This document shows positions 8,915 through 64,000 of a stretch of DNA of 64,000 nucleotides, piece after piece. The notes beneath the pieces are model-generated. The model had not been told where the DNA came from. It did not search any database and saw nothing but the letters and a program-made list of their open reading frames with translations. Location of the stretch: contig CAKPKR010000003.1 in NCBI GenBank assembly GCA_934167465.1, forward strand, positions 2,992 through 66,991, written 5' to 3'. The first letter of the stretch is position 1; each line of letters begins with the position of its first letter. This stretch comes from an uncultured Bacilli bacterium. GTDB lineage: Bacteria > Bacillota_I > Bacilli_A > RF39 > UBA660. The position numbers were made by a program, and so were the translations under genes.

Positions 8915-9047
8915 GTAAGTAATTCCTTTTTTTGTATTGTTTTTTTTAATGTTTATAATAATAAAAAGATGTAAATAAAAAAATGATGTCTTGCAATATG
9001 TAATATATTTATTATATAATAAAATAGAAAGGTAGTAGTGAAGTAGT
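8915..9047 (+). promoter_or_regulatory. shared promoter and leader module, copy 1 (TTGCAA-18-TATAAT plus conserved 5' UTR ATAGAAAGGTAGTAGTGAAGTAGT-ATG)
   Basis: A module of about 130 bp recurs almost identically upstream of the genes at 9048, 10055 and 49682. The -35 is at 8991-8996 and the -10 at 9015-9020. Confidence 0.55.
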
Positions 9048-9917
9048 ATGAAAAAAATGTTAAGAAGCAGAATTTTTTTGGTAATAGTAACATTAATAAT
9101 AGGAATAAGTGGAACATTATATGCAGCAAACTCATATAACGCAAATGCTATTGTTTATAATTCAAGTGATGGAACAAGTAAAAATGTAAATGAAGCTTTG
9201 AATGATTTATATACAAAAAGTAAAAAAGAATATTATGTAAATGGATTAGTAGCATATTATAATCCTGTAACAGGATCAAAATGTAAAGTAAGCGAAGCAA
9301 CATCAAATACAAATAGCAAAGGAACATATACAGAGGTAAAAACAGGATGTATGAAATGGTATATTTTTAAAGAAGATTTTGATAATTATACAATGATATT
9401 AGATCACAATACTACTGCAAGAATAAAATGGAATGATAATAATGTAAATGTATCTTATGAAAATAGCAATATTAAAGCCGAAGTAGATAAGTTAGTAAGT
9501 GTCTCAAAATGGAAAAATACTCCTAGATTAATTACAGCAAATGAATTATCCAAAATAACAAATAATTCAACTTTTAATGATTCAGTTGAAAATAATTGGT
9601 ATTTTTTTGATAGTAATAGTCATAATCAAACTGCTACATCAAAGGGTGCAAGCACTTATTCTTGGCTATATGATTATACATCTTCTTGTTCAAGTTGGGG
9701 ATGTAATGTGGAAGATAATAATTATTATACTGGCGTTGGTACATCAGGAACTGGTTATTTTTATGGATATTGGACATCAACAACAAGGGGAACAGCTGGT
9801 GCTGGATATGCTGTTTGGGATGTTTTCCATCATGGTAATTTAGATGGTGGTGATGCTAATTATGATGCACGTGGTATTCGCCCAGTTATAACAATTTCAA
9901 AAACAATATTAAAATAA
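9048..9917 (+). CDS. variable secreted protein family member A0 (conserved N-terminal module plus DUF1566/Lcl-C-like C-terminus)
   Basis: The N-terminal 60 aa are shared with the genes at 32462, 33087, 33715, 41108, 42438, 52511 and 61881. The C-terminus, YWTSTT...AVWDVFHHGNL...ARGIRPV, fits the DUF1566 / FGE-fold ending. Confidence 0.6.
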   Translation: MKKMLRSRIFLVIVTLIIGISGTLYAANSYNANAIVYNSSDGTSKNVNEALNDLYTKSKKEYYVNGLVAYYNPVTGSKCKVSEATSNTNSKGTYTEVKTGCMKWYIFKEDFDNYTMILDHNTTARIKWNDNNVNVSYENSNIKAEVDKLVSVSKWKNTPRLITANELSKITNNSTFNDSVENNWYFFDSNSHNQTATSKGASTYSWLYDYTSSCSSWGCNVEDNNYYTGVGTSGTGYFYGYWTSTTRGTAGAGYAVWDVFHHGNLDGGDANYDARGIRPVITISKTILK

Positions 9918-10054
9918 GGAAGTAATTCCTTTTTTTGTATTCTTTTTCTAATAATAGTTATACTAATAAAAAAAGATGTAAATAAAAAAATATTGTCTTG
10001 CAAAAAGTAATACAATTAATGTATAATTGAATAGAAAGGTAGTAGTGAAGTAGT
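9918..10054 (+). promoter_or_regulatory. shared promoter and leader module, copy 2
   Basis: Same module. TTGCAA is at 9998-10003 and TATAAT at 10022-10027. A small AGGAA-gtaa-TTCCT-T7 terminator lies at its 5' end. Confidence 0.55.
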
Positions 10055-11698
10055 ATGAAAAAAGGATTTACATTAATAGAATTATTGGCAGTAATAGTGA
10101 TATTGGCAGTAATAGCATTAATCGCAACACCAATAATATTAAATGTAATAGAAGAATCAAAAAAGGGAGCCGCTGAACAATCAGTAATCGGATATGTAAA
10201 CGGAATAGAGAATAATGTTTTAGTATCAGAATTGGATAATAGTTCTATAGAAGATGGAAGTTACAATATAAATGAAATAGAAGTAGAAGTAAAAGGAAAT
10301 AAACCTGATAGTGGGAATATAACAATAGAAAAAGGAATAGTAGTAGATGCAGTAATGTGTATGAGTGGATATAAAGTAATATATTCAAATAGTAAAGCGG
10401 AAGTCCAAGGAAAATGTGAAGGAAATCTAGTATATAGTGAAGGTATTTTAAATGGAACAGATCCAGTATTAGGTGAAAATATGATACCAGTAACAATAGA
10501 AAAAGATGGAACAGTAAAATATGCAGATATAAATAAGAAATGGTATAGTTATGGAAATAAAGAATGGGCAAATGCAGTAATATTAAATACAAGTAATAGT
10601 TATAATGTAGGAGATATAATACCAGAAAGTGAAATAGAATCATATTTTGTGTGGATACCAAGATATAGATATAAATTATTTAATGTAGATAATACAAGTA
10701 AAGATTCAAAAACATATACAAATTATAAAGATATACCAAGTAAAGCAGAGGAAATAGAAATAGTATTTGAAAATAAAGAAACAAAAATAAGTAACGGAAA
10801 TAAAAATGGTGAATATTTAATGCATCCAGCTTTTACATCATTTGAAAGTAATGGAATGTGGGTAGGAAAATTTGAAACAGGATATAAAGGAGCAACAACT
10901 ACTTCAACAGCTCAAGTAAACTCAAATGATTCTACAAAAGTAATAGTTAAACCAAACGTTTATAGTTGGAGAAGTATAACAGTAGGAAATATCTTTTTAA
11001 CAAGTTATAATTATAAAAGAGATTTGGATTCACATATGATGAAGAATACCGAATGGGGAGCAGTAGCATATCTTTCACATTCAAAATATGGAATAAATAG
11101 TGAAGTAAGAATAAATAATAATAGTGCACATATAACAGGTTATGCAAAGACTGAACAACCAACTTGTGGTTGGACAAATAGTAATGAAGAATGTAATAAG
11201 TTTGAAAGTACGGCTTTAAATCAAGATGGAACATATACAAAAAGATATAATACCGAAATTGGATATTTAGCAAGTACAACAGGAAATATAACCGGAATCT
11301 ATGATATGAGTGGCGGATCTAATGAATATATGGCAGCCTATATGGCAGGACAACTAGGAAATAGTGGACTAATACCAACCGATTATGATTCAAAATATTT
11401 TAATGTATATAATTCATCAAGTACAGTAACAAGTTATCAATATCGCATCTTAGGAGATGCAACTGGAGAAATGGGACCATTTACAAATTTAAAATCAAGT
11501 GGAAGTGATGGAGACAAAACCTCATATGCATCAAGTTGGTATGCCGACCGTTCGAACTTTGTTGACTCTGGTAGCCCTTGGTTCAACCGAGGCGGCGATT
11601 ACGGCCATGGTGTAGTTGCAGGTCAGTTCAACTTCCTTAGGAGCCCGGGTGGTACTTACAGTTACGTTGGCTTCCGCCTAGTTTTAACACCTCAATAA
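10055..11698 (+). CDS. type IV prepilin-like N-terminus fused to an FGE-sulfatase/DUF1566-like domain protein (paralog B1)
   Basis: MKKGFTLIELLAVIVIL is a class III prepilin signal: G then F, with E at +5. The middle and C-terminal parts, TEWGAVAYL, GIYDMSGGSNEY, RGG...VGFRLV, resemble the FGE-sulfatase fold. Confidence 0.6.
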   Translation: MKKGFTLIELLAVIVILAVIALIATPIILNVIEESKKGAAEQSVIGYVNGIENNVLVSELDNSSIEDGSYNINEIEVEVKGNKPDSGNITIEKGIVVDAVMCMSGYKVIYSNSKAEVQGKCEGNLVYSEGILNGTDPVLGENMIPVTIEKDGTVKYADINKKWYSYGNKEWANAVILNTSNSYNVGDIIPESEIESYFVWIPRYRYKLFNVDNTSKDSKTYTNYKDIPSKAEEIEIVFENKETKISNGNKNGEYLMHPAFTSFESNGMWVGKFETGYKGATTTSTAQVNSNDSTKVIVKPNVYSWRSITVGNIFLTSYNYKRDLDSHMMKNTEWGAVAYLSHSKYGINSEVRINNNSAHITGYAKTEQPTCGWTNSNEECNKFESTALNQDGTYTKRYNTEIGYLASTTGNITGIYDMSGGSNEYMAAYMAGQLGNSGLIPTDYDSKYFNVYNSSSTVTSYQYRILGDATGEMGPFTNLKSSGSDGDKTSYASSWYADRSNFVDSGSPWFNRGGDYGHGVVAGQFNFLRSPGGTYSYVGFRLVLTPQ

Positions 11699-11730: not shown

Positions 11731-11889
11731 ATTTAAAAATTATCAACATTTATTTTTAAATTATATTTAATAAATTTGTCGAAATTTATATGTTAAAAAG
11801 TGAATGAAAAAAAGCAAAAATGTAGTAAAATATAAAGCGATATATTTAATTGGTGTTGGTGCATTCCTCCATTATGAGGAGGTGGTATT

Positions 11890-11967
11890 ATGTCTAAAAG
11901 AGAAATTTCCTTTTTCATTATAATACTTCTATTATTTTTTATAATAATTACTTTATTATATAGATAA
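11890..11967 (+). CDS. 25-aa hydrophobic peptide MSKREISFFIIILLLFFIIITLLYR (candidate type I toxin)
   Basis: A strong Shine-Dalgarno sequence, GGAGGTGG, lies inside a CCTCC...GGAGG hairpin. The ORF is conserved in three copies. Confidence 0.5.
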   Translation: MSKREISFFIIILLLFFIIITLLYR

Positions 11968-12082
11968 TAAAATAAGCACTATCACAGGGGGTAGTGCTTT
12001 CTAAATACAATTTGGAATGTATCTAACTCTATCAACAATTAGATATATCCTTTTTTTATTGTATGAGTAATAACTCATCTAT
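11968..12082 (-). ncRNA. predicted antisense sRNA (candidate antitoxin)
   Basis: A minus-strand promoter, TTGAAA-17-TAATAT, is at 12115-12087. The transcript would terminate at the hairpin AGCACTATC...GTAGTGCT plus a T-run, reading in the minus orientation. Confidence 0.4.
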
Positions 12083-12220
12083 ATACATATTAACATTTTT
12101 AAAATATTTTTTCAATAATATTTTAAAATAATTTATAAATGAAATTTTTTATAATTTAATAAGAAATATTGATATATGTTTTTCATCCATTTTATGGTAA
12201 AATAATAATTGGTGGTAAGA

Positions 12221-22914: not shown

Positions 22915-23045
22915 ATAATACTTTTTTTTGTCGGAATTTGTATGTTAAAAAATGGATAAACAAAAACTAAAATGTAGTAGAATATAAAGCGATATATTTA
23001 ATTGGTGTTAGTGCATTCCTTCTAGAATAAGAAGGCGGTGATATT

Positions 23046-23123
23046 ATGACAAAAAGAGAAATATCTTTATTTTTAATAATAATTCTATTATTTGTTATAA
23101 TTTTTATTTTATTATATAAATAA
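23046..23123 (+). CDS. 25-aa hydrophobic peptide MTKREISLFLIIILLFVIIFILLYK (candidate type I toxin)
   Basis: The Shine-Dalgarno sequence AGAAGGCGGTG is sequestered in the hairpin CCTTCT-agaata-AGAAGG. Confidence 0.5.
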   Translation: MTKREISLFLIIILLFVIIFILLYK

Positions 23124-23236
23124 AAAAATGCACTATCACAGGGGGATAGTACTAACTAAAAAACCATTTAGGAATGTATCTAATTTTTAGAACAATTAGA
23201 TATATCCTTTTTTAATTATATGGGCATTACTTATCT
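23122..23236 (-). ncRNA. predicted antisense sRNA (candidate antitoxin)
   Basis: The minus-strand promoter has TTGAAA at 23271-23266, a 17-nt spacer and TATTAT at 23248-23243. A terminator hairpin at 23130-23152 is followed by an A-run on the plus strand. Confidence 0.4.
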
Positions 23237-23336
23237 ATATACATAATAACATTTTAAAAATATTTTTTCAATAATTTTATGTAATTTACGAATATAAACA
23301 AAATAGACTTTTTAACAAAAATTTGATACAATTTTA

Positions 23337-32407: not shown

Positions 32408-32438
32408 TTGACAAAAACGTCTGGGGGGGGGGTATGAT
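32408..32438 (+). promoter_or_regulatory. poly-G promoter of A1: TTGACA, spacer with G10 at 32423-32432, TATGAT
   Basis: The spacer is 19 nt. The homopolymer lies exactly between the -35 and the -10. Confidence 0.7.
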
Positions 32439-32461
32439 ATTGATAGAAAGTAGGAATCTAG

Positions 32462-32917
32462 ATGAAAAAAGTAATAAAAAATAGAATGTTTTTGGTGATT
32501 ATAATAACTATCATAGTTACTAGTGTAAGTGTATATGCCGCAACCACATATAAAGCAACAGATGTAATATATAAAGCAAGTGATGGAACAAGTATGAATG
32601 TAAATGATGCTTTAAATGAATTATATAATAAAAGTAATAATACAGGATATCCTGATATTAAAATTTATTATGATTCAGGTTGGGGTGGTGGTACTTGTCA
32701 AGCATTTGCTAATTTTAATATACCTAAAGGGTATAATTATTTAGAAGTAATACCACCATATGTTAGTTCTGAACATAGTTCATCTATGGAAGGAAAAATA
32801 ATTTCTCTTAATCAAAAGATTAATGTTTCGGAAAAAGATAGTGTACGAGTAAATGTATATAATGAAGCTACTAGTGGAGCTTGTAGAGCAAATGGTACTA
32901 TTGTACTTAGTCATTAA
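32462..32917 (+). CDS. variable secreted protein family member A1
   Basis: The conserved N-terminus MKKVIKNRMFLVII...YAATTYKATDVIYKASDGTSMNVNDALNELYNK is followed by a variable C-terminus. Confidence 0.65.
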   Translation: MKKVIKNRMFLVIIITIIVTSVSVYAATTYKATDVIYKASDGTSMNVNDALNELYNKSNNTGYPDIKIYYDSGWGGGTCQAFANFNIPKGYNYLEVIPPYVSSEHSSSMEGKIISLNQKINVSEKDSVRVNVYNEATSGACRANGTIVLSH

Positions 32918-32924
32918 TTTTATA

Positions 32925-32975
32925 ACTATATTTCAATTATTATTATTATTATGAATAAAGGTTTTTAGAACCTTT
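32925..32975 (+). terminator. terminator after A1
   Basis: AAAGGTTtttagAACCTTT is followed by a T-run. An (ATT)5 microsatellite lies just upstream. Confidence 0.5.
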
Positions 32976-33032
32976 TTAAATTTTATTATTATTTTTTATA
33001 TAAAGTTTTTTTCACAATTTTTTGAAAATTTC

Positions 33033-33063
33033 TTGACTTTTACGTCTGGGGGGGGGGTATGAT
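33033..33063 (+). promoter_or_regulatory. poly-G promoter of A2: TTGACT, spacer with G10 at 33048-33057, TATGAT
   Basis: The spacer is 19 nt. Confidence 0.7.
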
Positions 33064-33086
33064 ATATCTAGAAAGTAGGAATCTAG

Positions 33087-33551
33087 ATGAAAAAAATAAT
33101 GAAAAGTAGAATATTTTTAGTAATTATAATAACTATCATAGTTGCTAGCGTAAGTGTATATGCCGCAACCACATATAAAGCAACAGATGTAATATATAAA
33201 GCAAGTGATGGAACAAGTATGAATGTAAATGATGCTTTAAATGAATTATATAATAAAAGTAATAATACAGGATATCCTGATATTACAATGTATCTTGATT
33301 CAGGTTATGTAGCAGCAGCTAATTGTGCAACCTCTGTTACTATTGATATACCTGATGGTTATAATTATTTAACTGTAACAACTACTGGTAATGTTTCACA
33401 AACTAAGATAGCAATGGATAGCACATATGTTACTTCTGGAGAGAAATATGATGTTTCAGAGAAAAATAGTATATTAATAAAAATTATACATTATAAAAAT
33501 TCTAGTGGTACGTATTCTAGAGCAATGGGAACTATTGTACTCAGTCATTAA
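33087..33551 (+). CDS. variable secreted protein family member A2
   Basis: A tandem paralog of A1 and A3. Confidence 0.65.
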   Translation: MKKIMKSRIFLVIIITIIVASVSVYAATTYKATDVIYKASDGTSMNVNDALNELYNKSNNTGYPDITMYLDSGYVAAANCATSVTIDIPDGYNYLTVTTTGNVSQTKIAMDSTYVTSGEKYDVSEKNSILIKIIHYKNSSGTYSRAMGTIVLSH

Positions 33552-33661
33552 TTTTTAGCTATATTTCAATTATTATTATTATGAATAAAGGTTTCTAGAA
33601 CCTTTTTAAATTTTATTATTACTTTTTATAAAATTTTTTTTTATAAATTTTTGAAAATTTC

Positions 33662-33691
33662 TTGACTTTTACGTCTGGGGGGGGGTATGAT
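33662..33691 (+). promoter_or_regulatory. poly-G promoter of A3: TTGACT, spacer with G9 at 33677-33685, TATGAT
   Basis: The spacer is 18 nt. Confidence 0.7.
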
Positions 33692-33714
33692 ATATCTAGA
33701 AAGTAGGAATCTAG

Positions 33715-34173
33715 ATGAAAAAAGTAATAAAAAATAGAATGTTTTTGGTGATTATAATAACTATCATAGTTACTAGTGTAAGTGTATATGCCGCAACCAC
33801 ATATAAAGCAACAGATGTAATATATAAAGCAAGTGATGGAACAAGTATGAATGTAAATGATGCTTTAAATGAATTATATAATAAAAGTAATAATACAGGA
33901 TATCCTAATATTACAATGTACCTTGATTCAGGTTATGTAGCAGCAGCTAATTGTTCTGATTCCATTACTATTGATATACCTGATGGGTATAATTATTTAA
34001 CTGTAACAATTAATTATCCATCTATTGATACAATAAAGATGGATGGAACAATTATTACTTCTGGAGAAAAATATAATGTTTCTGAAAAAGAAAAAGTATT
34101 AATAAGTGTATCACAAATAAATACGGGTGGAACTTATGTTAGAGCAAAAGGAACTATTGTTCTTACTCGTTAA
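33715..34173 (+). CDS. variable secreted protein family member A3
   Basis: A tandem paralog. Its C-terminus is GTIVLTR. Confidence 0.65.
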   Translation: MKKVIKNRMFLVIIITIIVTSVSVYAATTYKATDVIYKASDGTSMNVNDALNELYNKSNNTGYPNITMYLDSGYVAAANCSDSITIDIPDGYNYLTVTINYPSIDTIKMDGTIITSGEKYNVSEKEKVLISVSQINTGGTYVRAKGTIVLTR

Positions 34174-40574: not shown

Positions 40575-40775
40575 TTCTATTTTTTTTTATATATTAGGAA
40601 AGTGCTTCCAAATTTTAAAAAAAAATATATGTTCTATTAAAAAAACTTTCTAAATTTTTGTCAGAATTTGTATGTAAAAAAAAAGATGAAAATAATAAAA
40701 AATATAGTAGAATATAAATCGATATATTTAATTGGTGTTAGTGCATTCCTTCTAGAATAAGAAGGTGGTGATTTT

Positions 40776-40853
40776 ATGACAAAAAGAGAAATATCTTTAT
40801 TCTTAATAATAATTCTATTATTTGTTATAATTTTTACTTTATTATATAAATAA
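40776..40853 (+). CDS. 25-aa hydrophobic peptide MTKREISLFLIIILLFVIIFTLLYK (candidate type I toxin)
   Basis: The Shine-Dalgarno sequence AGAAGGTGGTG lies in the hairpin CCTTCT-agaata-AGAAGG. Confidence 0.5.
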   Translation: MTKREISLFLIIILLFVIIFTLLYK

Positions 40854-40967
40854 AAAAATTGCACTATCACAGGGGGGATAGTGCATTCGCAAAACAAATT
40901 AGGAATGTATCTAACTCTTTAGACAATTAGATATATCCTTTTTTATTGTATGAGCAATAACTCATCT
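40854..40967 (-). ncRNA. predicted antisense sRNA (candidate antitoxin)
   Basis: The minus-strand promoter has TTGAAA at 41002-40997, a 17-nt spacer and TACTAT at 40979-40974. It terminates at the hairpin GCACTATC-acaggggg-GATAGTGC at 40861-40884. Confidence 0.4.
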
Positions 40968-41053
40968 GTATACATAGTAACATTTTAAAAATATTTTTTC
41001 AATAATATTATAAAATAAATTGCAAAATTTTAAAACGCGAACAAAATTTCTGC

Positions 41054-41083
41054 TTGACTTTTACGTCTGGGGGGGGGTATGAT
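41054..41083 (+). promoter_or_regulatory. poly-G promoter of A4: TTGACT, spacer with G9 at 41069-41077, TATGAT
   Basis: The spacer is 18 nt. The conserved upstream box is ACGCGAACAAAATTTCTGC. Confidence 0.7.
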
Positions 41084-41107
41084 AGTATTGGAAAGTAGGA
41101 ATTTATA

Positions 41108-41992
41108 ATGAAAAAAATAATGAAAAGCAGAATATTTTTAGTAATAATTACAATGATTATATGTATAAGTGGAACTTTATATGCAGCGGTCACATATAAA
41201 GCAACAGATGTAGTATATAATGCCAATGATGGAACAAGTAAAAATGTAAGTGAGGCTTTAAATGAATTGTATGAAAATTGTTCTATTACAAAAATATATC
41301 CAAAAGTAACAATAACTACAGAAGCAGATACTGTTATAGGCCAGACAGTAATTGCAACATTAATCAAAGATAAAGATGGAAATTCTCCTAAAGAAGAATA
41401 TGTAGTGAAGGGTACATTAACTAATAGTACAACTTTAGTGTTAAAAAAAATAGGAACTTATAAAATTACAGCAAGTTCTTCTGATGGATTAGAAAATTAT
41501 AGCGATGAAATAACTGTTCAATACGATAATGTATATAATATTAATTATACTGTAAAAAAATATCTTTTTAATAATAGTGATGTAACTGCAGTAACTGGAG
41601 GTTGGGGAGTGATGTGGGAGGCATCTGGTGGTACACCTGGAGCTTCAACGTCTGGTGGTACTGTTAATTCGACATTGTATTTAACTTCTGGATCATCGGG
41701 TAAAAAAGATATGTATGCGAAAAATTCAATTGATTTAACAGGATGGAAAAGAATTGTTATAGTATGTACATATTATAATAATTTAAATAATGGATGGGCA
41801 GGACTTCATTTATATCAACCTGGAGGTTATTGGAGTAAAGATGCTAAATTAGTTGTTGGAGATTTAGGAGCTTTTTCAGTTGGAACATTTACTTATGATA
41901 TTTCTAGTTCTAAATACCAAAAAGAAGTTAGATTTGCATTATTAGCGGCTAGAGTTGAATGGAAAATATCTAAAATATATTTAGAAAAATAA
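41108..41992 (+). CDS. variable secreted protein family member A4 (294 aa)
   Basis: The family N-terminus is followed by a long unique C-terminal region. Confidence 0.65.
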   Translation: MKKIMKSRIFLVIITMIICISGTLYAAVTYKATDVVYNANDGTSKNVSEALNELYENCSITKIYPKVTITTEADTVIGQTVIATLIKDKDGNSPKEEYVVKGTLTNSTTLVLKKIGTYKITASSSDGLENYSDEITVQYDNVYNINYTVKKYLFNNSDVTAVTGGWGVMWEASGGTPGASTSGGTVNSTLYLTSGSSGKKDMYAKNSIDLTGWKRIVIVCTYYNNLNNGWAGLHLYQPGGYWSKDAKLVVGDLGAFSVGTFTYDISSSKYQKEVRFALLAARVEWKISKIYLEK

Positions 41993-42384
41993 ATTTAATA
42001 GTAATTGTTTTTTAGATAAAAGAACCATCAATTTCAAAAATAGCAATTCTATTATAATAACTATGACAAATAAGATCAGAAGAATTACAACAAGGACAAA
42101 AAAATTGGTAATTATTACCATTATCATATAAATTTAATAAATCGTTAAAATTAGTACTGCATTTTTAAGAATTTAATATTATCATAACAATGTCGAAAGA
42201 CAAAGGAAGAAAAAGAAGACAAAACAAAAATCGTGGTGTAGTCTTCTTTTTTTATTGTTTTAAGACTCTTTCTGATAAATTTGCACATTATTTTATACTA
42301 TTTAATAAACTTTTACAAAATAATTTGCGAAAACATTGTATATATTAATTCGACAAAATTTACAAATACGAACAAAATTTCTGC

Positions 42385-42414
42385 TTGATTTTTACGCCTG
42401 GGGGGGGGTATAAT
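42385..42414 (+). promoter_or_regulatory. poly-G promoter of A5: TTGATT, spacer with G9 at 42400-42408, TATAAT
   Basis: The spacer is 18 nt. It has the same upstream box as A4 and A7. Confidence 0.7.
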
Positions 42415-42437
42415 CTAAGTAGGATAGGTGTTTATAG

Positions 42438-42926
42438 ATGAAAAAAATAATAAAAAGCAGAATATTTTTAGTAATAATTACAATGATTATATGTATAAGT
42501 GGAACATTATATGCCGCATCAACATACAAAGCAAGTGATGTAGTATATAACGCAAGTGATGGTACATCAACCAATGTTGAAAGTGCTTTAAATGATTTAT
42601 ATAATAAAACAAAAGAATATAGTAATAATTTTTTTCCATTTAATGTAAATTATGTATATAATAATTATATTGGTTCAACAAATAAAATAACATTTACTAC
42701 TACAATAGAAACAGGAAATATAGATATAACAAAATATAAAATAGTTGGTGGAACAACAAGAGTAGAACCATGGCTAAATACTCAAGGAAAATATATTGAT
42801 ACAACAAGTTCAATAATTAGTTGCAAAGAAGGTATTACGACTATAGAAATAACAGTAACAATTGATGCGGCATCTAGTCTAGCAGGACCCGTTAACTATA
42901 GCGGTGCAATATATAGAATTGAATAA
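42438..42926 (+). CDS. variable secreted protein family member A5 (162 aa)
   Basis: The family N-terminus is present. Confidence 0.65.
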   Translation: MKKIIKSRIFLVIITMIICISGTLYAASTYKASDVVYNASDGTSTNVESALNDLYNKTKEYSNNFFPFNVNYVYNNYIGSTNKITFTTTIETGNIDITKYKIVGGTTRVEPWLNTQGKYIDTTSSIISCKEGITTIEITVTIDAASSLAGPVNYSGAIYRIE

Positions 42927-49544: not shown

Positions 49545-49681
49545 TAGTTTTGACTACTTTTTTCTGTATTGTTTTTTTTATAATGTTTATAATAATAAAA
49601 AGATGTAAATAAGAAAATATTGTCTTGCAATACGTAATACGTTTATTATATAATAAGATAGAAAGGTAGTAGTGAAGTAGT
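49545..49681 (+). promoter_or_regulatory. shared promoter and leader module, copy 3
   Basis: A terminator, AGTAGT-tttg-ACTACT-T6, is followed by TTGCAA at 49625-49630, an 18-nt spacer, TATAAT at 49649-49654, and the 5' UTR identical to the copies at 9024 and 10031. Confidence 0.55.
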
Positions 49682-51328
49682 ATGAAAAAACAAGGATTTA
49701 CACTTATTGAGTTGTTAGCAGTTATCGTAATATTAGCTGTGATAGCTTTAATCGCAACACCAATAATCTTAAATGTAATTGAAGATTCAAAAAAGGGAGC
49801 AGCCGAACAATCAGTAATCGGATATATAAATGGAATAGAAAATAGTGTATTAGTATCAGAATTAGATAATAATTCATTAGATGATGGAAGTTATAATATA
49901 AATGAATTAAATGTCGAAGTAAAAGGAAATAAACCAAGTAGTGGTAATGTAACATTAGAAAATGGAATAGTAGTAGATGCTGTAATTTGTATGAATGGAT
50001 ATAGAATAAATTATGCAAATAGTAAAGCTGAAGTCCAAGGAAAATGTGATGAAGCATTAGTATATAGTGAAGGTATTTTAAATGGAACAGATCCCGTATT
50101 AGGTGACAATATGATACCAGTCACAATTGAAAAAGATGGAACAGTAAAGTATGCTGATATAAACAAAAAATGGTATAGTTATAGAAATAAAGAATGGGCA
50201 AATGCAGTAATATTAAATACAAGTAATACTTACAAAGTAGGAGATATAATACCAGAAAGTGAAATTGAATCATATTTTGTATGGATACCTAGATATAAAT
50301 ATAAATTATTTAATGTAGATAATACAAGTAAAGATTCAAAGACATATACAATATATACAGATGTACCAAGTAAAGCAGAGGAAATAGAAATAATATTTGA
50401 AAATAAAGAAACAAAAGAAAGTATAGGAACAAAGAATGGAGAATATTTAACCCACCCAGCCTTCACATCATTTGAAAGTAATGGAATGTGGGTAGGAAAG
50501 TTTGAAACAGGCTATAAAGGAGCAACTTCAACTACTTCAGCTCAAGTAAATAGTAATGATTTAAGTAAAGTAATAGTTAAACCTAATGTATATAGTTGGC
50601 GAAATATAACTATAAATAATATATTCTTAACAAGTTATAATTATAAAAGAAATTTAGATTCACATATGATGAAGAATACCGAATGGGGAGCAGTAGCATA
50701 CCTATCACATTCAAAATATGGAATTAATAATGATATAAGAATAAATAATAATAGTGCATATATAACAGGATATGCCAAGACAGAACAACCAACATGTGGA
50801 TATACAAATAGCAATGAAAATTGTAATAGATTTGAAAGTACATCATTAAATCAAGATGGGACATATACCAAGAGATATAATACGGAAATAGGCTATTTAG
50901 CTAGTACAACCGGAAATATTACGGGAATCTATGATATGAGTGGTGGGTCACATGAATATGTAGCAGCATATATGGCAGGAAACTTAGGAAGTAGTGGAAT
51001 AACACCAACCGATTATGATTCAAAATACTTTAATGTATATAATGCATCAAGTACACAAACAAGTTATCAATATCGAATTTTAGGAGATGCAACTGGCGAA
51101 ATGGGACCATTTACAAATTTAAAATCAACTGGGAGCAATGGTGTTAAGACAGCATATGTTTCAAGTTGGTACGCTTCCGACGCGAATTTCGTTGACTCTT
51201 CTTACCCTTGGTTCATTCGTGGCATCCATTTCATCGGTGGTGTACTTGCAGGTCAGTTCAACTTCGCTAGGAACACAGGAACTAATAATGGTTATATTGG
51301 TTTCCGTTTAGTTTTAACACCACAATAA
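49682..51328 (+). CDS. type IV prepilin-like N-terminus fused to an FGE-sulfatase/DUF1566-like domain protein (paralog B2)
   Basis: MKKQGFTLIELLAVIVIL is a prepilin signal. The protein is collinear with B1 throughout. The last 150 nt are GC-rich. Confidence 0.6.
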   Translation: MKKQGFTLIELLAVIVILAVIALIATPIILNVIEDSKKGAAEQSVIGYINGIENSVLVSELDNNSLDDGSYNINELNVEVKGNKPSSGNVTLENGIVVDAVICMNGYRINYANSKAEVQGKCDEALVYSEGILNGTDPVLGDNMIPVTIEKDGTVKYADINKKWYSYRNKEWANAVILNTSNTYKVGDIIPESEIESYFVWIPRYKYKLFNVDNTSKDSKTYTIYTDVPSKAEEIEIIFENKETKESIGTKNGEYLTHPAFTSFESNGMWVGKFETGYKGATSTTSAQVNSNDLSKVIVKPNVYSWRNITINNIFLTSYNYKRNLDSHMMKNTEWGAVAYLSHSKYGINNDIRINNNSAYITGYAKTEQPTCGYTNSNENCNRFESTSLNQDGTYTKRYNTEIGYLASTTGNITGIYDMSGGSHEYVAAYMAGNLGSSGITPTDYDSKYFNVYNASSTQTSYQYRILGDATGEMGPFTNLKSTGSNGVKTAYVSSWYASDANFVDSSYPWFIRGIHFIGGVLAGQFNFARNTGTNNGYIGFRLVLTPQ

Positions 51329-52455: not shown

Positions 52456-52487
52456 TTGACTTTTACGTCTGGGGGGGGGGGTATGAT
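52456..52487 (+). promoter_or_regulatory. poly-G promoter of A6: TTGACT, spacer with G11 at 52471-52481, TATGAT
   Basis: The spacer is 20 nt. This is the longest tract in the window. Confidence 0.7.
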
Positions 52488-52510
52488 AGTAATGGAAAGT
52501 AGGAATCTAG

Positions 52511-53122
52511 ATGAAAAAAGTAATAAAAAGTAGAATATTTTTAGTAATAATTACGATGATTATATGTATAAGCGGAACATTATATGCAGCTAATACATAT
52601 AAAGCATCAGATGTAGTATATAATACCAGTGATGGAACAAGTAAAAATGTAAGTGAAGTCTTAAACGAGTTATATGATAAATCAAATAACAATTCTGATT
52701 TAGAATTAATATATGATGCAATGGTTTCTAAAGGAGTAACACCATCTAGTAAAAAGATAGATGATATTATAATGGCAATCAAAACAAAGATGGGAGTTTC
52801 AACTCATATAGCATCTGTTAGATTTGCAAATAGAGCCACTAATAGTTCTTCATATACAAGGGGTAGAATGTATTTATATGACTCTAGTGGGACAGTACTA
52901 TCATCTAGTTGGGCAGAAGGATCAGGAGAATCAACAATTTATGGTGAGGATGTTAGAGTCAGTTCTGGTACAATTTTATATGCTGGTTTTTCATCAGCAT
53001 CTGATAAAAATACAAGAGGAATATTGCAGCTTGTTGTTGATGGAAATGTGGTAACATCTGTATTTGTTGAAACAAGCAAAGGAACGTCAAATACTAATAA
53101 AATTACAGTTTTGGATTCTTAA
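52511..53122 (+). CDS. variable secreted protein family member A6 (203 aa)
   Basis: The family N-terminus is present. Confidence 0.65.
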   Translation: MKKVIKSRIFLVIITMIICISGTLYAANTYKASDVVYNTSDGTSKNVSEVLNELYDKSNNNSDLELIYDAMVSKGVTPSSKKIDDIIMAIKTKMGVSTHIASVRFANRATNSSSYTRGRMYLYDSSGTVLSSSWAEGSGESTIYGEDVRVSSGTILYAGFSSASDKNTRGILQLVVDGNVVTSVFVETSKGTSNTNKITVLDS

Positions 53123-58310: not shown

Positions 58311-59135
58311 ATGTTGGAATTACAGGAAAATATTAGAGAAGTAAAAAGTCAGTATGATAAAAACAAAAATAACTGTAATAAAATAGAACAATTAGATTAT
58401 ATGAGAAGTTTAATTAAATTGTATCATAATTTTGAATGTAAAAAAACTTATGAAGAAATGATGAGAGAATATAAAGTAAGATACATTTACAATGAATCAA
58501 AAGTTGAAGGAAATATTACACCAGAAGAACAACTTGGTATAGGTGTTGTATACGATTATATCCAAAAATTTGATTTTGAAAAAGATTATTTTAATGTTTT
58601 CACAACTTCACTTTTAATTCATCAAAAATTATATTCTAAATGTTTTTACAAAGAATTTGGAGGTAAACTGAGAACTGAATCAGTGTATTTAAAAAATTCT
58701 AATATTGAAATAATGGAACCTTTAGCTGCTCAAAAGTATTTCAATTCATTTATTAGCAAAAGTGAAGAAGTATTTATTCCTCTTGATGAAAATGATATTT
58801 TAGGTTATATTGAAAAATGTATTAAATTAACAACGGACTTAATAAAAGTTCAACCATTTCAAGATGGTAATAAAAGAACTTTTAGGTCATTATTAAATTT
58901 ATTATTAAAAAAAGCAACATTACCACCAATATATATTAATATTAATCACAGGGTAGAATATAAGAAATATTTAATGGATGCAATTTTGAATGATGAATAT
59001 TCAGGTATTTATGAATTTTACTATAATAGAATTGAAGAAGCAATATTTGAATTAGATTTATATAATAGAGAAATAGAAGAAGAAGTTAAAACTTATCGTT
59101 TATTAAGAGATATTAAAAATATAAGCAAATATTAA
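58311..59135 (+). CDS. Fic/Doc-family protein with a degenerate active-site motif
   Basis: VQPFQDGNKRTFR aligns to HPFx(D/E)GNGRxxR with H changed to Q and G changed to K. Confidence 0.6.
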   Translation: MLELQENIREVKSQYDKNKNNCNKIEQLDYMRSLIKLYHNFECKKTYEEMMREYKVRYIYNESKVEGNITPEEQLGIGVVYDYIQKFDFEKDYFNVFTTSLLIHQKLYSKCFYKEFGGKLRTESVYLKNSNIEIMEPLAAQKYFNSFISKSEEVFIPLDENDILGYIEKCIKLTTDLIKVQPFQDGNKRTFRSLLNLLLKKATLPPIYININHRVEYKKYLMDAILNDEYSGIYEFYYNRIEEAIFELDLYNREIEEEVKTYRLLRDIKNISKY

Positions 59136-59180
59136 CTTTATTTTTAAAAGATAATTTGGTATAATACCATAGGTGATAGT

Positions 59181-59396
59181 ATGATAAGTTTTTTAGAATT
59201 ATTTTTAGGTAAAAGCGCGAAATGGTTAATTTTATTTATAATAGGGACCATTTTAGGATATTTTTTACTTAAAATAGCAGATAAAAAATTACCTAGAAAA
59301 ATATATAATATAATTTACTTTATTGTTTATGCTATATTGGGAATATTTTTAATATTATTTTTTGTAGAATTAATAATAAGAGTGTTTACAATTTAA
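59181..59396 (+). CDS. small membrane protein
   Basis: The ORF has two transmembrane segments. Confidence 0.3.
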   Translation: MISFLELFLGKSAKWLILFIIGTILGYFLLKIADKKLPRKIYNIIYFIVYAILGIFLILFFVELIIRVFTI

Positions 59397-59450
59397 GGAA
59401 AAACTTTGTGTTTTTTCTTTTTTTTTGTTATAATGAAAAAGGTGGTAAAT

Positions 59451-61358
59451 ATGAAAAACTACGATGAAAGTTCAATAAAAATTCTAGAGGGACTAGAAGC
59501 CGTAAGAAAAAGACCAGGTATGTATATTGGTTCAACCGATAAAAGAGGTTTACATCATTTAATCTGGGAAATTGTCGATAATGGTGTCGATGAAGTAATA
59601 AATGGTTATGGTAAAAAAATTAAGATTTCAATTAATCAAGATGAATCAATTACAGTAGAAGACGAAGGAAGAGGTGTTCCAGTTGGAATGCATTCTAGTG
59701 GAATGTCTACTCCTGAAGTAATTTATACAGTATTACATGCTGGTGGTAAATTTGAAACTGGTGGATATAAAGTATCTGGAGGATTGCACGGAGTTGGTGC
59801 TTCAGTCGTAAATGCTCTATCTAGTTGGATGGAAGTTTATATTAAAAGAGATGGGTATGAACATTTTATTAGATTTAAAGATGGTGGTAAATTAGATATA
59901 CCATTAAAGAAATTAGAAAAAACTAATAAAACGGGGACTAAAGTAACATTTATGCCTGATCCTACAATATTTTCTACAACGCATTTTTCATTTACAACGA
60001 TTTGTGAGAGAATGCAAGAGTGTGCTTTTTTACTTAAAGGGTTAACAATCGAAGTATATGATATACCTGATGATAAAAAAGAGGTATACCATTATGAAAA
60101 TGGTTTAGAAGCATTTGTAGATTATTTAAATGAAGACAAAAATTCATTACATAAAACTGTTCATTTTGAAGGAATGAAAGAAAAAATAAATGTTGAAATA
60201 GCATTTCAATATACTGATTCATATTCAGAAAATATAATTTCATTTGTCAATAATGTTAAAACAAATGATGGTGGAACACATGAAGTTGGATTTAAAACAG
60301 CAATAACAAGAGTATTTAATGATTATGCTAAAAACAATGGTTTTCTAAAAGCAAAAGATAAAACTTTTGAAGGAGCCGATACTAGAGAGGGACTAACTGC
60401 TATTATAAGTTTACAAATACCAGAAGATTTATTACAATTTGAAGGTCAAACTAAGGGTAAACTAGGGACACCACTTGCTCGTAATGTTGTTGATAATATA
60501 GTAGCTGAAAAATTACAATTTTTCTTAGAAGAAAATAAAGAAGTAGCAACTAATATTTTAAATAAGATGGTTAAAAGTAAAAATGTTAGAGAAGCTGCTC
60601 GAAAAGCAAGAGATGAAGCTCGAAATGGAAAATCAAAAAACAAAAAAGAACAAGCTTTGTCTGGTAAATTATCACCTGCACAAAGTAAAGATGCTACTAA
60701 AAATGAATTGTTCTTAGTCGAAGGAGATTCAGCTGGTGGTTCAGCTAAACTTGGTAGGGATAAAAAATATCAAGCGATTTTACCATTAAGAGGTAAAGTT
60801 TTAAATACTGAAAAAGTTAGAATGGAAGAAATATTCAAAAACGAAGAAATTAATACAATGATTCACACAATAGGAGCTGGAGTTGGAACTGATTTCGATG
60901 TTAAAGATTGTAATTATGATAAAGTAATTATAATGACCGATGCCGATGATGATGGTGCTCATATTCAAATACTATTAATTACTTTCTTTTATAGATACAT
61001 GAAACCATTAATAGAGGCTGGGAAACTATATATAGCCATGCCTCCATTGTATAAAATTTCGTCTGGTAAAGAAGAATATTATGCTTGGACTGAAGAAGAT
61101 AGAAAAGAAATACTAGAAAAATTCAAAAATAAAACATCTAATACACAAAGATATAAAGGACTTGGTGAAATGGATGCTATCCAATTAAGAGAAACAACAA
61201 TGGATCCTGAAAAAAGAAGTTTAATTAAAGTAAGTATTAATGATGGGGCTTTAGCCGAAAAAAGAGTAAGTATTTTAATGGGAGATAAAGTAGAACCAAG
61301 AAAAGAATGGATAGAAGAAAATGTTGATTTTACTTTACAAGATAATTATATAAAATAG
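59451..61358 (+). CDS. parE: DNA topoisomerase IV subunit B (type IIA topoisomerase B subunit)
   Basis: The GHKL ATPase, TOPRIM motifs EGDSAGG and PLRGK, and the C-terminal domain are present. It is called ParE rather than GyrB because the downstream partner is ParC-like. Confidence 0.8.
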   Translation: MKNYDESSIKILEGLEAVRKRPGMYIGSTDKRGLHHLIWEIVDNGVDEVINGYGKKIKISINQDESITVEDEGRGVPVGMHSSGMSTPEVIYTVLHAGGKFETGGYKVSGGLHGVGASVVNALSSWMEVYIKRDGYEHFIRFKDGGKLDIPLKKLEKTNKTGTKVTFMPDPTIFSTTHFSFTTICERMQECAFLLKGLTIEVYDIPDDKKEVYHYENGLEAFVDYLNEDKNSLHKTVHFEGMKEKINVEIAFQYTDSYSENIISFVNNVKTNDGGTHEVGFKTAITRVFNDYAKNNGFLKAKDKTFEGADTREGLTAIISLQIPEDLLQFEGQTKGKLGTPLARNVVDNIVAEKLQFFLEENKEVATNILNKMVKSKNVREAARKARDEARNGKSKNKKEQALSGKLSPAQSKDATKNELFLVEGDSAGGSAKLGRDKKYQAILPLRGKVLNTEKVRMEEIFKNEEINTMIHTIGAGVGTDFDVKDCNYDKVIIMTDADDDGAHIQILLITFFYRYMKPLIEAGKLYIAMPPLYKISSGKEEYYAWTEEDRKEILEKFKNKTSNTQRYKGLGEMDAIQLRETTMDPEKRSLIKVSINDGALAEKRVSILMGDKVEPRKEWIEENVDFTLQDNYIK

Positions 61359-61383
61359 GATTTTTTTAAATCCTTTTTTGTTT
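61359..61383 (+). terminator. rho-independent terminator after parE
   Basis: AGGATTTttttAAATCCT is followed by T6. Confidence 0.55.
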
Positions 61384-61437
61384 ATTATGAAATTTTTACA
61401 AAATTATCAAGAATTATTTTGTTTTTGTTCTAAATAA

Positions 61438-61790
61438 TATGTCGGAATTCGTATGTAAAAAATTAGATAAGAAAAATTAAAAATATGGTAGAATATTAAT
61501 CGATATATTTAATTGGTGTTAGTGCATTCCTTCTATAATAAGAAGGAGAGGTGGTCGTTATGAAAGAAAGAGAAAAACTCTATTCTTAATAATCTTCCTA
61601 CTATTATTTATAGTAATTATATTACTTTATAAATAAAAAAATGCACTATCACAGGGGGATAGTGCTTTCAAAACTTTTGGAATGTATCTAACTCTGAACA
61701 ATTAGATATATCCTTTTTTATTGTATGAGTAATAACTCATCTATATACATAGTAACATTTTAAAAAAATTTTTCAATAATATTATAAAAT
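61438..61790. repeat. type I toxin-antitoxin-like repeat, copy 4, with a disrupted peptide frame
   Basis: It has the same unit structure. The ATG at 61560 gives only MKEREKLYS before a stop. The LIIFLLLFIVIILLYK tail is in another frame. Confidence 0.65.
61560..61636 (+). pseudogene. frameshifted remnant of the 25-aa peptide gene
   Basis: See the repeat feature above. The hairpins and the antisense promoter, TTGAAA at 61776-61771, are retained. Confidence 0.5.
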
Positions 61791-61827
61791 AAATTGCAAG
61801 AATTTAAAACGCGAACAAAATTTCTGC

Positions 61828-61858
61828 TTGATTTTTACGCCTGGGGGGGGGGTATAAT
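61828..61858 (+). promoter_or_regulatory. poly-G promoter of A7: TTGATT, spacer with G10 at 61843-61852, TATAAT
   Basis: The spacer is 19 nt. It has the same upstream box, ACGCGAACAAAATTTCTGC. Confidence 0.7.
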
Positions 61859-61880
61859 CTAAGTAGGATAGGTGTTATAA

Positions 61881-62597
61881 ATGAAAAAAATAATAAAAAA
61901 TAAAATAATTTTAATAGTAATATTATGTATAATAAGTTGTGGTATAGGAGTATATGCTGCAACAACATATAAAGCAAGTGATATAGTATATAACGCAAGT
62001 GACGGAACAAGTATAAATGTAAATGATGCTTTAAATGATATTTATACAATCAAAACACAAGGTAATGCAACAGAAAATGATATTTTGAATGGAAAAACAG
62101 CTGTCGTAAAAGGAAAAATGATAACTGGTACATTTAAAAATAATTTTACCTTTGAAACAATAGAAAACCCGGTTGGTACATCTATTATGGATTATAATGA
62201 GAAAAGAAAAGATAAATATTTGACTTTTACACTAGGTGAAAGGTTAAGTTACAATGATACTAATTATTCTGATTATATGTGTTATATTTATCCTATAGAT
62301 TTAACTAATGTTTCAACACTCATCTTGTATCAATGGAATTATATATCGATGCATTTTACAGTAGCAATTTCATTATTTGATACTCCATTATATTCTAGGC
62401 AAGAAATAATAGATAATGCATTTGCAACGTGGACATATTCGACATCAGGTAGTAAAAAGGCATCTAATTACAATATTAAAGAAATTGATGTAAGAAATGT
62501 AACTGGTAAGAAGTATATCAATATTGCAGTTGTTAGTAAGAATAATTCTTCTGATGAATATTATATGCTTACTAAAAATATAATATCGTTTAATTAA
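61881..62597 (+). CDS. variable secreted protein family member A7 (238 aa)
   Basis: It is the most diverged family N-terminus: MKKIIKNKIILIVIL...YAATTYKASDIVYNASDGTSINVNDALNDIY. Confidence 0.6.
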   Translation: MKKIIKNKIILIVILCIISCGIGVYAATTYKASDIVYNASDGTSINVNDALNDIYTIKTQGNATENDILNGKTAVVKGKMITGTFKNNFTFETIENPVGTSIMDYNEKRKDKYLTFTLGERLSYNDTNYSDYMCYIYPIDLTNVSTLILYQWNYISMHFTVAISLFDTPLYSRQEIIDNAFATWTYSTSGSKKASNYNIKEIDVRNVTGKKYINIAVVSKNNSSDEYYMLTKNIISFN

Positions 62598-62674
62598 AAA
62601 AATAAAATTATGACATTTTTCGACAAATTATTTATTTCCTAATGCATATAATATATAAGTATTGGAGGAATTAT

Positions 62675-63046
62675 ATGTGTTTAGAAGAAACAATGTTTTA
62701 TAAAATAAAATTTATTGATGAAAATAAAGTTGTAATAAAAGAAAATATATTAGATAAAATAGAATATAATAATAGTCAAAGTACGCTACTTTTAATTTTA
62801 GTTAAATATTTATTGGATGATACAGAATATGTATGCGAAGAATATAATTCTTTAAAAAAATTTATTGATATAACACCACAAAAAAATACACCAACAAACT
62901 TGGTTGATATTTTAGGAATAATAAAAATTTTTATAAATAAAGTATGCCCAGGAACAATAGAAGAGGAAAAATTATTAAGTAAGCTACAACTTTATGATGA
63001 TATCATTAATCAAGAAGGAAAGACTTTAACATTTGCTTTGGCTTAA
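62675..63046 (+). CDS. hypothetical protein
   Basis: A Shine-Dalgarno sequence, GGAGGAA, is present. There are no motifs. Confidence 0.3.
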
Positions 63047-63086
63047 ATTCTTTGCATTACTTCTTTTTTTTTGGTATAATTAACTA

Positions 63087-64000
63087 TGGTGAGATTATGA
63101 ATGTATTAAACAAAATATATGATTATGCTCTAGAAGAAATAATGGGAGATAGATTCGGAAGATATTCAAAATCTATTATTCAAGATAGAGCGCTTCCAGA
63201 TATTAGAGATGGTTTAAAACCGGTTCAAAGAAGAATATTATACGCAATGTATAGAGATAGAAATACTAGTGATAAACCATATAAAAAATCAGCTACGGCT
63301 GTAGGAAATATAATGGGACATTATCATCCCCATGGTGACTCATCAATCTATGATGCAATGGTTAGATTGAGTCAATGGTGGAAACAAAATACTCCATATA
63401 TAGATATGCATGGTAATAATGGTTCCATTGATGGTGATGGAGCAGCGGCAATGCGTTATACTGAATCTAGATTATCAAAAATTTCTATGGAATTATTAAA
63501 AGATATCGATAAAGACACAGTTGATATGGTATGGAATTTTGATGATACCTTAAAAGAACCTGTTGTTTTACCCGCTAAATTTCCAAATTTATTAGTAAAT
63601 GGATCAAATGGTATTAGTGCAGGATATGCAACAAATATTCCAACCCATAACTTAGTAGAAGTAATAGATGCAACCATAAAAAGAATAGACAGTCCAAATT
63701 GTAGATTAGATTCTATTTTAGAAATAGTAAAAGGTCCAGATTTTCCAACTGGTGGAATAGTTGAAGGAAAAAAAGGAATAATTGACGCTTTTACAACAGG
63801 TAGAGGTAAAGTAATAGTTAAAGCAAAAACTGAATTTGTAAAAGACAAAGGTAAGAATACTATTTTAGTAACAGAAATACCTTTTGAAGTTAATAAAGCT
63901 TTACTAGTAAAAAAAATAGATGAAATTAGAATTGACAAAAAAATTGAAGGAATAGTTGAAGTATTAGATGAATCAAATTTTGAAGAACCAACTAGAATAG
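63087..64000 (+). CDS. parC: DNA topoisomerase IV subunit A, N-terminal part; continues beyond the window
   Basis: [35 protein letters not shown] and [19 protein letters not shown] are present. The gene has its own extended -10 promoter, TGGTATAAT, at 63062-63070. It is not in the ORF track because no stop codon falls in the window. Confidence 0.8.

Follow-up and report, generated by a model that had tools for sequence, protein, structure and literature searches.

The stretch of DNA analysed here (the window; 64,000 nt, about 25% G+C, nearly all genes on the + strand) comes from an uncultured Bacilli bacterium. Near its right end it carries the two topoisomerase IV genes, parE and parC, which are separated by a toxin–antitoxin (TA)-like repeat, by a gene that we call A7 with a run of ten G residues in its promoter, and by a gene for a 123-aa hypothetical protein. 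These features had been listed in a preliminary description of the locus, together with a terminator at the end of parE, a broken peptide frame in the repeat and an extended −10 promoter of parC, and each of them was found again at the positions given below.

The parE gene (59451–61358, + strand) encodes the 635-aa subunit B of topoisomerase IV, which contains the Pfam gyrase B domains and scored 992 bits on TIGR01058 (parE_Gpos, cut-off 900). parC, for subunit A, starts with the ATG at 63097 and is truncated by the end of the window (63097–64000, + strand); its full-length product at an identical locus (L107) scored 998 bits on TIGR01061 (parC_Gpos, cut-off 813). The gyrB and gyrA models stayed below their cut-offs for ParE and ParC, and the pair was assigned to Gram-positive topoisomerase IV. 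Directly after the parE stop codon lies an AT-rich, terminator-like hairpin with six U residues (GGAUUUUUUUAAAUCC, 61356–61381, + strand, −9.2 kcal/mol, z −2.7), which a terminator scan based on G+C content missed because it is too AT-rich. The hairpin accompanies parE in L001, the closest species-level genome (96% identical over parE), which shares only 59116–61392 with the window. Because the homology to L001 starts only at 59116, the upstream flank of parE is variable as well; in the window, this flank (58311–59396) is occupied by a Fic/DOC-domain gene (274 aa) and a gene for a membrane peptide of 71 aa.

The repeat that follows parE is one of four window copies of a dispersed, type-I-TA-like repeat (about 370–400 nt, 64–93% identical). 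Copies 1–3 (11773–12139, 22925–23295 and 40655–41026) each lie just past the stop codon of a gene and are apparently intact, with a promoter-like region, a Shine-Dalgarno sequence and an open reading frame (ORF) for a very hydrophobic 25-aa peptide (MTKREISLFLIIILLFVIIFTLLYK in copy 3), followed by a G+C-rich hairpin and then by a second hairpin with a T-run. The four-copy alignment and frame analysis showed that copy 4 (about 61395–61801, its start being also placed at about 61436), the one between parE and A7, has lost the intact toxin ORF that copies 1–3 still have and that is expected of a type I TA locus. In the remnant of its peptide ORF (61560–61636, + strand), the ATG frame reads MKEREKLYS and stops after nine codons, and the hydrophobic segment TLFLIIFLLLFIVIILLYK stands in another frame without a start codon, the cause being a 1-nt deletion.

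The G+C-rich hairpin (61643–61665) has its U-run on the minus strand, is invariant in all copies and is the predicted terminator of an antisense RNA; it was the sole terminator-like site that the G+C-based scan returned for 61300–63200. The second hairpin, with six T residues (61679–61719, + strand, z −3.4 for 61636–61725), is likely where the toxin-side transcript ends, and it would also hinder transcription coming through from parE. A convergent antisense promoter-like site (TTGAAA-16-TG-TACTAT, 61749–61776, minus strand) is present in copy 4, and the predicted antisense RNA (from about 61745 down to 61636, about 110 nt) contains three hairpins (z −4.9). This structure is kept in all copies, which are too similar to each other to show covariation. 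In strains L081 and L108 the toxin half of the repeat is deleted and the antisense half is kept. There was no Rfam match at gathering thresholds in the whole window, and the 25-aa peptide matched no Pfam toxin family.

By its layout, the repeat resembles a type I TA locus outside any described family. Known type I TA loci with convergent, 3'-overlapping RNAs include txpA/RatA and bsrG/SR4 of Bacillus subtilis and par (Fst/RNAII) of Enterococcus. Like these, the repeat has a hydrophobic ORF (25 aa) with a promoter and a Shine-Dalgarno sequence, a promoter-like site in convergent orientation some 100 nt downstream and a predicted hairpin terminator for both sides, and it is multi-copy and intergenic with toxin halves that decay or are deleted. 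It differs from them in that no Pfam or Rfam sequence match was found and copy 4 is frameshifted, and its toxicity and RNA pairing are putative.

On the other side of A7, the gene for the 123-aa protein (62675–63046, + strand) received the same ORF call in other assemblies, and the protein had no family match in Pfam, PHROGs or NCBIfam. Against small genes located upstream of parC in relatives, phmmer gave E-values of 0.002–0.006 in a 52-sequence set and jackhmmer recruited seven sequences, while BLASTP gave none. parC is preceded by a promoter-like site of its own (63052–63080, + strand), consisting of TTGCAT (63052–63057), 17 nt and the extended −10 TGGTATAAT (63072–63080). The gap between parE and parC thus measures 1,738 nt and holds three hairpin/U-run sites and two genes, which is not the adjacency of an operon. 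Because the parE hairpin, two hairpins of the repeat, a gene with its own promoter and the parC promoter-like site all lie between them, parE and parC are likely transcribed separately. No terminator-like hairpin was found between A7, the 123-aa gene and parC (62598–63096), and an active A7 promoter may read into the 123-aa gene and parC, which would couple a housekeeping gene to a variable promoter.

Poly-G promoters and their tract lengths

The A7 promoter (61828–61858, + strand) consists of a −35 box TTGATT (61828–61833), a 19-nt spacer made up of TTTACGCCT and G10 (61843–61852), and a −10 box TATAAT (61853–61858). Counting of G runs in the window gave 19 matches to G8 at seven loci, compared with 0.12 matches expected by chance. 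All seven tracts are G9 or longer, lie on the + strand and occupy the same promoter position about 30 nt upstream of an ATG, and G9+ runs in the window are confined to these promoters. The alignment of the seven promoters reads CTTGA(C/T)TTTTACG(T/C)CT, G9–11, TATGAT/TATAAT, a Shine-Dalgarno sequence and ATGAAAAAA, and the spacer is always 9 nt plus the tract, which gives 18–20 nt in the window. A slip-prone repeat therefore stands between −35 and −10 at seven of seven loci, as in promoter-spacer phase variation.

The genes behind the other six promoters are A1, A2 and A3 in tandem (32408–34173, + strand; ATG at 32462, 33087 and 33715; G10, G10 and G9), A4 and A5 (ATG at 41108 and 42438, both G9), which follow repeat copy 3 in the region 40655–42926 (+ strand), and A6 (52456–53122, + strand; ATG at 52511, G11). 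Copy 3 of the repeat adjoins the A4 promoter exactly as copy 4 adjoins the A7 promoter. An eighth gene, A0 (9048–9917, + strand), has the N-terminal module of the family without poly-G and with a different conserved promoter. This promoter lies in a 130-nt region that is common to three genes (8927–9056, 9934–10063 and 49561–49690, in window regions 8189–11698 and 49561–51328), namely A0 and two genes for 547-aa proteins with prepilin N-termini (MKKGFTLIELLAVIVILAVIA). A gene of the sporulation-type (SigE/K-like) sigma-70 family (8189–8914) precedes the A0 region. A0 and the two prepilin-like proteins may form a set of displayed proteins under separate regulation.

We then compared tract lengths between strains. 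Exact-protein look-ups led to independent assemblies from many samples, with 100% identical proteins and conserved flanks, and the tract lengths were read from consensus contigs. The A4 tract was G9 in three contigs and G10 in two; the A5 tract was G9 in three, G10 in five and G11 in four; and the A6 tract was G10 in six and G11 in four to five. Three paralogue types located outside the window varied as well, the P0032 type between G8, G9 and G10, and the P0025 and 453-aa types between G9 and G10. Length variation was observed within MEGAHIT contigs and within SPAdes contigs alike. Thus, length polymorphism with constant flanks was found for the family, not for A7. Such variation is the expected signature of slipped-strand mispairing and supports it.

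G9–G11 tracts were also seen elsewhere in related species (L005:12007, L015:8541, L016:5145, L017:9149, L019:9148, L026:5318, L040:8523 and L044:252). In one type, unrelated genes are preceded by a conserved leader (TATAGT...GCAAAC-G10/11-ACACCCTC-T7) in which the tract may form one arm of a terminator-like hairpin; in L044, the G tract is located within a prepilin-like coding sequence. Switching by poly-G tracts may be common across the lineage and may operate through several mechanisms.

The A7 protein and its family

A7 (61881–62597, + strand) encodes a protein of 238 aa that starts with MKKIIKNKIILIVILCIISCGIGVYA. It consists of a signal peptide (residues 1–26), a conserved motif ATTYKASDIVYNASDGTSINVNDALNDIY (27–55), one GxATxxDIxxGKTAxVxGxxITGT unit (about 62–84; the GKTA unit) and a rare, beta-rich C-terminal domain. 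The family comprises at least seven poly-G genes in the window (A1–A7), A0 as an eighth member and more outside, with at least ten dispersed copies among core genes. Its members share about 56 N-terminal residues, which begin K-rich, continue with a hydrophobic stretch up to VYA|A or LYA|A and include the motif ATTYKA(T/S)DV(V/I)YNASDGTSxNVNDALNELY. Past this N-terminus divergence is complete: A1–A3 are related to each other, and the C-termini of A4, A5, A6, A7 and A0 are mutually unrelated.

The preliminary description had called A7 the most diverged member, with a unique C-terminus. Within the window this holds for the signal region, which is 57–64% identical to those of A1–A6, but the mature motif (67–76%) is no outlier, and the same signal type occurs on at least five other C-terminal types. 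The C-terminus is likewise unique in the window, but those of A4, A5, A6 and A0 are just as unique.

Neither A7 nor its paralogues matched a Pfam, PHROGs or NCBIfam family significantly; there were sub-threshold matches only, such as Phage_spike_2 (E 0.073) on the N-terminal motif of A6. A PDB profile search gave no match. When A7 residues 58–238 were searched with phmmer against the full library, only two full-length relatives of the C-terminal domain were found: P0002, a 97% identical fragment, and P0003, in which an A7-type domain (62% identity) stands behind a prepilin-type methylation motif and not behind the family module. A third protein, P0187, matched A7 residues 71–163 at 33%, and by eye its N-terminus appears phage-tail-fibre-like. 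About 160 other matches cover only residues 59–95, that is the GKTA unit, which occurs in tandem up to 16 times in large proteins, one of which (P0085) ends in a phage baseplate Gp10_C domain. The order of signal peptide, short motif ending in an ALNDLY variant, GKTA units and variable domain was also found in P0114 and P0144 from other taxa. Domain swapping between family members is shown by the sequences, and A7 is best read as an exported, fibre-like protein with an exchangeable tip domain, a putative surface location and a putative ligand.

Foldseek matches of an A7 structure model to viral proteins (tail, jelly-roll capsid and uncharacterised) reached a template-modelling score of 0.33 or lower and were uninformative. 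A lipoprotein family was rejected: A1–A3 have no Cys in the signal region, A4–A6 have MIIC, a poor lipobox, and only A7 has a lipobox-like IISC|G. Judged by eye, the VYA|A or LYA|A ends of the signal regions are signal peptidase I-like. Variable-number tandem repeats were not found in the A7 C-terminus, which has one GKTA unit, and the family C-termini are non-repetitive. A7 and its paralogues are also without the prepilin G|FTLIE-type motif, which the neighbouring 547-aa genes and P0003 do carry.

The family member P0036 carries BclA_C (TNF/C1q-like) domains, an exosporium-type domain. Strains of the species encode YabP, YqfD, a SpoVID-N-like domain and Cse60 (L126:4541–5949, L110:1042–1626, L136:1178–1348), so sporulation proteins are present although relatives are filed under Mycoplasmatota or Tenericutes.

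Junctions between strains and parE–parC in relatives

The identical 123-aa protein was found on at least 23 contigs, and among the matches listed parC follows in 10 of 10 and A7 precedes in 9 of 10. In the remaining match (L116), A7 is replaced by another gene of the family, and homology to the window resumes at 62602, five bases past the A7 stop codon. To the left of A7 the strains differ. L107/L138 and L140 (and L141 as far as its contig runs) are continuous with the window and have parE and the repeat as left neighbour. In L108 and L081 the left neighbour is topA, with homology from 61626 and with the toxin half of the repeat deleted; in L109 it is an IS3 transposase gene, with homology from 61837 at the G tract and an A1-type −35; and in L110 it consists of LysM/SPOCS-type genes, with homology from 61812. 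L139 shows the reverse case: behind parE and the repeat come another gene of the family, a 263-aa ORF and cdaA, and there is no parC. The breakpoints coincide with the repeat and with the conserved promoter/5' module of the family, and the simplest explanation is rearrangement by homologous recombination between dispersed copies. In L110 (4423–6920), the parC call is split into ORFs of 312 aa and 515 aa, owing either to a frameshift or to faulty assembly of that sample.

A7 itself is a mosaic. The region 45–130 nt upstream of its tract is 94% identical to that of A4, its −35/spacer and −10-to-ATG segments are 100% and 93% identical to those of A5, its signal-peptide codons are 70–76% identical to all paralogues, its mature motif is closest to A1–A3 (85%), and the rest is unrelated. 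The A7 signal peptide, identical or with one substitution, is also joined to at least five other C-terminal types at other loci of the species; one of these loci is some 8 kb past parC, on a scaffold that also carries the arrangement of the window. Because A7 is a mosaic with a signal peptide common to other types, its divergence is no sign of the age of the family, which the preliminary description had taken to be old in this lineage; and since the left junctions differ among strains with an identical 123-aa protein, they indicate recombination that is recent and still under way rather than an insertion that is old and stable. Outside the window, about 8 kb past parC, another family locus follows hisS-aspS (L081:11551–11657, L131–L135). 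Its content (P0032, P0025, 243-aa and 453-aa types) and its downstream context vary between strains, and contigs often end there.

The parE–parC interval was then compared in 80 species-representative genomes whose ParE is 76–100% identical to that of the window, 68 of which had enough downstream sequence. These relatives are labelled uncultured Bacilli, Tenericutes or Firmicutes, and relatives with a name, such as Candidatus Faecisoma, are filed under Mycoplasmatota incertae sedis. The two genes are adjacent (13–95 nt apart) in 22 of 68 genomes, separated by an insert of 0.4–2.5 kb in 34, and without a parC within at least 3 kb in 12. The adjacent cases are all distant relatives (76–81% ParE identity), while every relative at 82% or above has the pair split or unlinked, and the next closest ones (86–90%) have the genes 0.4–1.7 kb apart. 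The assumption that parE and parC are normally adjacent therefore did not hold for this lineage.

The insert of the window is absent from 79 of 79 other species-level relatives, which answers in the negative whether all relatives share it; their inserts contain no family gene, the TA-like repeat is essentially absent from them, and they are mutually unrelated (ORF6N-like, acyltransferase-like, sugar-transferase-like and beta-lactamase-like genes and small hypotheticals). Because the relatives' inserts are unrelated and lack the family gene, the interval is, by this comparison, a general variable site of the lineage with species-specific cargo in the window. Read together with the strain junctions, the split seen here is a strain-level rearrangement and not an ancient feature. 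parE and parC form an operon in Gram-positive bacteria, for example grlB-grlA of Staphylococcus aureus and parE-parC of Bacillus subtilis. The window has the same order, parE then parC, on the same strand, but differs from this operon by a 1.7-kb gap with terminator-like hairpins and two unrelated genes, and in its lineage separation is commoner than adjacency.

Proposed explanation and comparison with known systems

We consider it probable that the locus reflects poly-G promoter-spacer phase variation of a modular surface-protein family at a variable, recombining parE–parC site. The multigene family to which A7 belongs would then encode Sec-exported, tail-fibre-like proteins of an uncultured gut lineage of about 25% G+C related to Bacilli/Mycoplasmatota, in which each poly-G gene has its own sigma-70-type promoter and the G tract makes up half of the −35/−10 spacer. 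Slipped-strand mispairing at replication would make the tract longer or shorter (G8 to G11, spacers of 17–20 nt), and the changed promoter geometry would switch or grade the transcription of each gene independently, as in a contingency locus. The exported protein would combine the conserved N-terminal stalk motif with an exchangeable C-terminal domain, probably a binding or antigenic tip. The parE–parC interval would be permissive, with the promoter/5' modules and the TA-like repeats as substrates of homologous recombination; the block of A7, hypothetical gene and parC would stay stable and its left side vary, being here parE and the decayed repeat. Transcription of parE would probably stop at its own hairpin, and that of parC would probably start from its own extended −10 promoter, maybe joined by read-through from A7.

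Several points weigh against this explanation. The A7 tract occupies ten positions in nine of nine contigs (about eight independent assemblies) without any change of length: it is G10 in the window (identical to L138), L140, L141, L108, L109, L110 and L112, and in L081 and L082 it is an interrupted allele, GGAGGGGGGG, which should slip less. A7 may be a more stable or locked member of the family. Across assemblies the spacers measure 17–20 nt, mostly 18–20 nt, which is longer than the canonical 17 nt; G8, which gives 17 nt, was found once only, and the commonest tract state may be OFF. Some of the variation in length between consensus contigs could stem from homopolymer errors made during sequencing or assembly. 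Finally, the AlphaFold2 model of A7, built on a 16-sequence alignment, has a beta-rich C-terminal half but low confidence (predicted local distance difference test, 56.8).

Some of these points suit another explanation, that the G tract is a fixed promoter element, regulator-binding or structural, with lengths that differ through homopolymer artefacts and with conventional regulation of the genes. An A7 tract of the same length in all assemblies, a narrow range from G8 to G11 with G10 modal at nearly every locus, and 18–20-nt spacers that misfit a simple 17-nt ON model would all agree with it. However, tract lengths differ within the same assembler at identical flanks and proteins, G9+ runs are confined to these promoters in a genome of 25% G+C, tracts this long are the classic slippage substrate known from Neisseria, Campylobacter and Mycoplasma, and related species have G10–11 tracts in other regulatory or coding positions, so we regard a fixed element as unlikely.

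Still less credit is due to the view that a prophage or another mobile element once integrated between parE and parC and left behind the repeat, the 123-aa gene and A7, with A7 as its tail-fibre gene. The GKTA unit shared with a Gp10_C protein, the C-terminal domain shared with P0187, the IS3 transposase gene next to A7 in L109, an integrase gene near a paralogue in L137 and weak structural matches to phage tail proteins would fit such an origin, but the interval and its surroundings contain no other phage genes, each member carries a Sec-type signal peptide and is preceded by a housekeeping-type promoter of its own, and at least ten copies are spread among core genes. Moreover, the promoter pattern had 0 matches in 2.9 million viral contigs, tblastn of A7 found no match in 50,697 phage records, and no PHROG family was assigned. 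An assembly chimera at the repeat, by which parE and parC would not really be linked in this way, is very improbable: many contigs (L141–L146) do break off within the repeat or the 5' part of A7, alternative left neighbours exist and L001 shares only the parE segment, but the order parE, repeat copy 4, A7, hypothetical gene and parC was assembled in at least three samples among the matches listed (L138, L140, and L141 as far as it runs), with eight further similar places and with different assemblers, repeat copies of 64–93% identity are poor substrates for mis-joins at k=141, and relatives at 86–90% ParE identity have the two genes 0.4–1.7 kb apart.

Promoter-spacer phase variation of a recombining surface-protein family remains our preferred explanation, and it could possibly be taken further. 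We tentatively propose a combined system in which a portable module of poly-G promoter, 5' untranslated region and signal peptide would gate expression stochastically and, with the TA-like repeats, would also serve as a recombination site that swaps whole receptor-binding tips among surface proteins, pilin-like proteins and phage tail fibres and rearranges the chromosome, so that parE and parC would be linked or unlinked from strain to strain; an A7 promoter in the ON state may in addition feed transcription into parC and the gene for the 123-aa protein.

Multigene families that undergo phase variation are familiar from pathogens, among them Mycoplasma, Neisseria and Campylobacter. We found no description of such a family in uncultured, reduced-genome Bacilli/Mycoplasmatota-like gut lineages, which are common in human and animal guts; the single paper that a literature search on RF39 and phase variation gave was unrelated. 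If the G tracts switch expression, they would diversify the cell surface stochastically, with a bearing on persistence against host immunity and phages, and consensus sequences from metagenomes would hide functionally distinct subpopulations. The family modules and the TA-like repeat mark strain-level breakpoints and are useful for judging the contiguity and chimerism of metagenome-assembled genomes. The parE–parC split itself is minor, because this interval varies across the whole lineage.

The layout of the A7 family, in which the C-terminal domain can be exchanged behind a conserved N-terminal module and short GKTA-type units, is also that of phage tail-fibre and receptor-binding proteins, and GKTA units and the A7 C-terminal domain are shared with phage-like proteins. 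In contrast to phage tail fibres, the members of the family are cellular genes at dispersed positions, with Sec signal peptides and no match in phage or viral collections.

Repeats in promoter spacers are known from the poly-A tracts of Mycoplasma hyorhinis vlp, the TA repeats of M. mycoides Vmm, and the poly-G of porA and poly-C of opc in Neisseria meningitidis. In all of these, as in the family described here, a hypermutable repeat between −35 and −10 sets the spacing, and vlp also shares the conserved promoter, 5' untranslated region and signal peptide before divergent mature regions, with one switch per gene. The present family differs from these four in its poly-G in an uncultured gut lineage of about 25% G+C and in its spacers of 17–20 nt, mostly 18–20 nt. 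Unlike Mycoplasma Vlp/Vsa proteins, its members lack internal tandem repeats and cannot be shown to be lipoproteins, and their variable parts are whole unrelated globular domains.

Poly-G/C contingency loci of Campylobacter and Helicobacter and a pilus G-tract switch of Bifidobacterium breve are described in earlier reports (PMC6321876, PMC2823697, PMC9187656). As in the window, these are G tracts of about 8–11 nt in low-G+C or commensal genomes, and theirs control surface structures. Their tracts are mostly intragenic frameshift switches, whereas seven of seven tracts here lie in promoter spacers, although intragenic and leader G tracts do occur in species related to that of the window.

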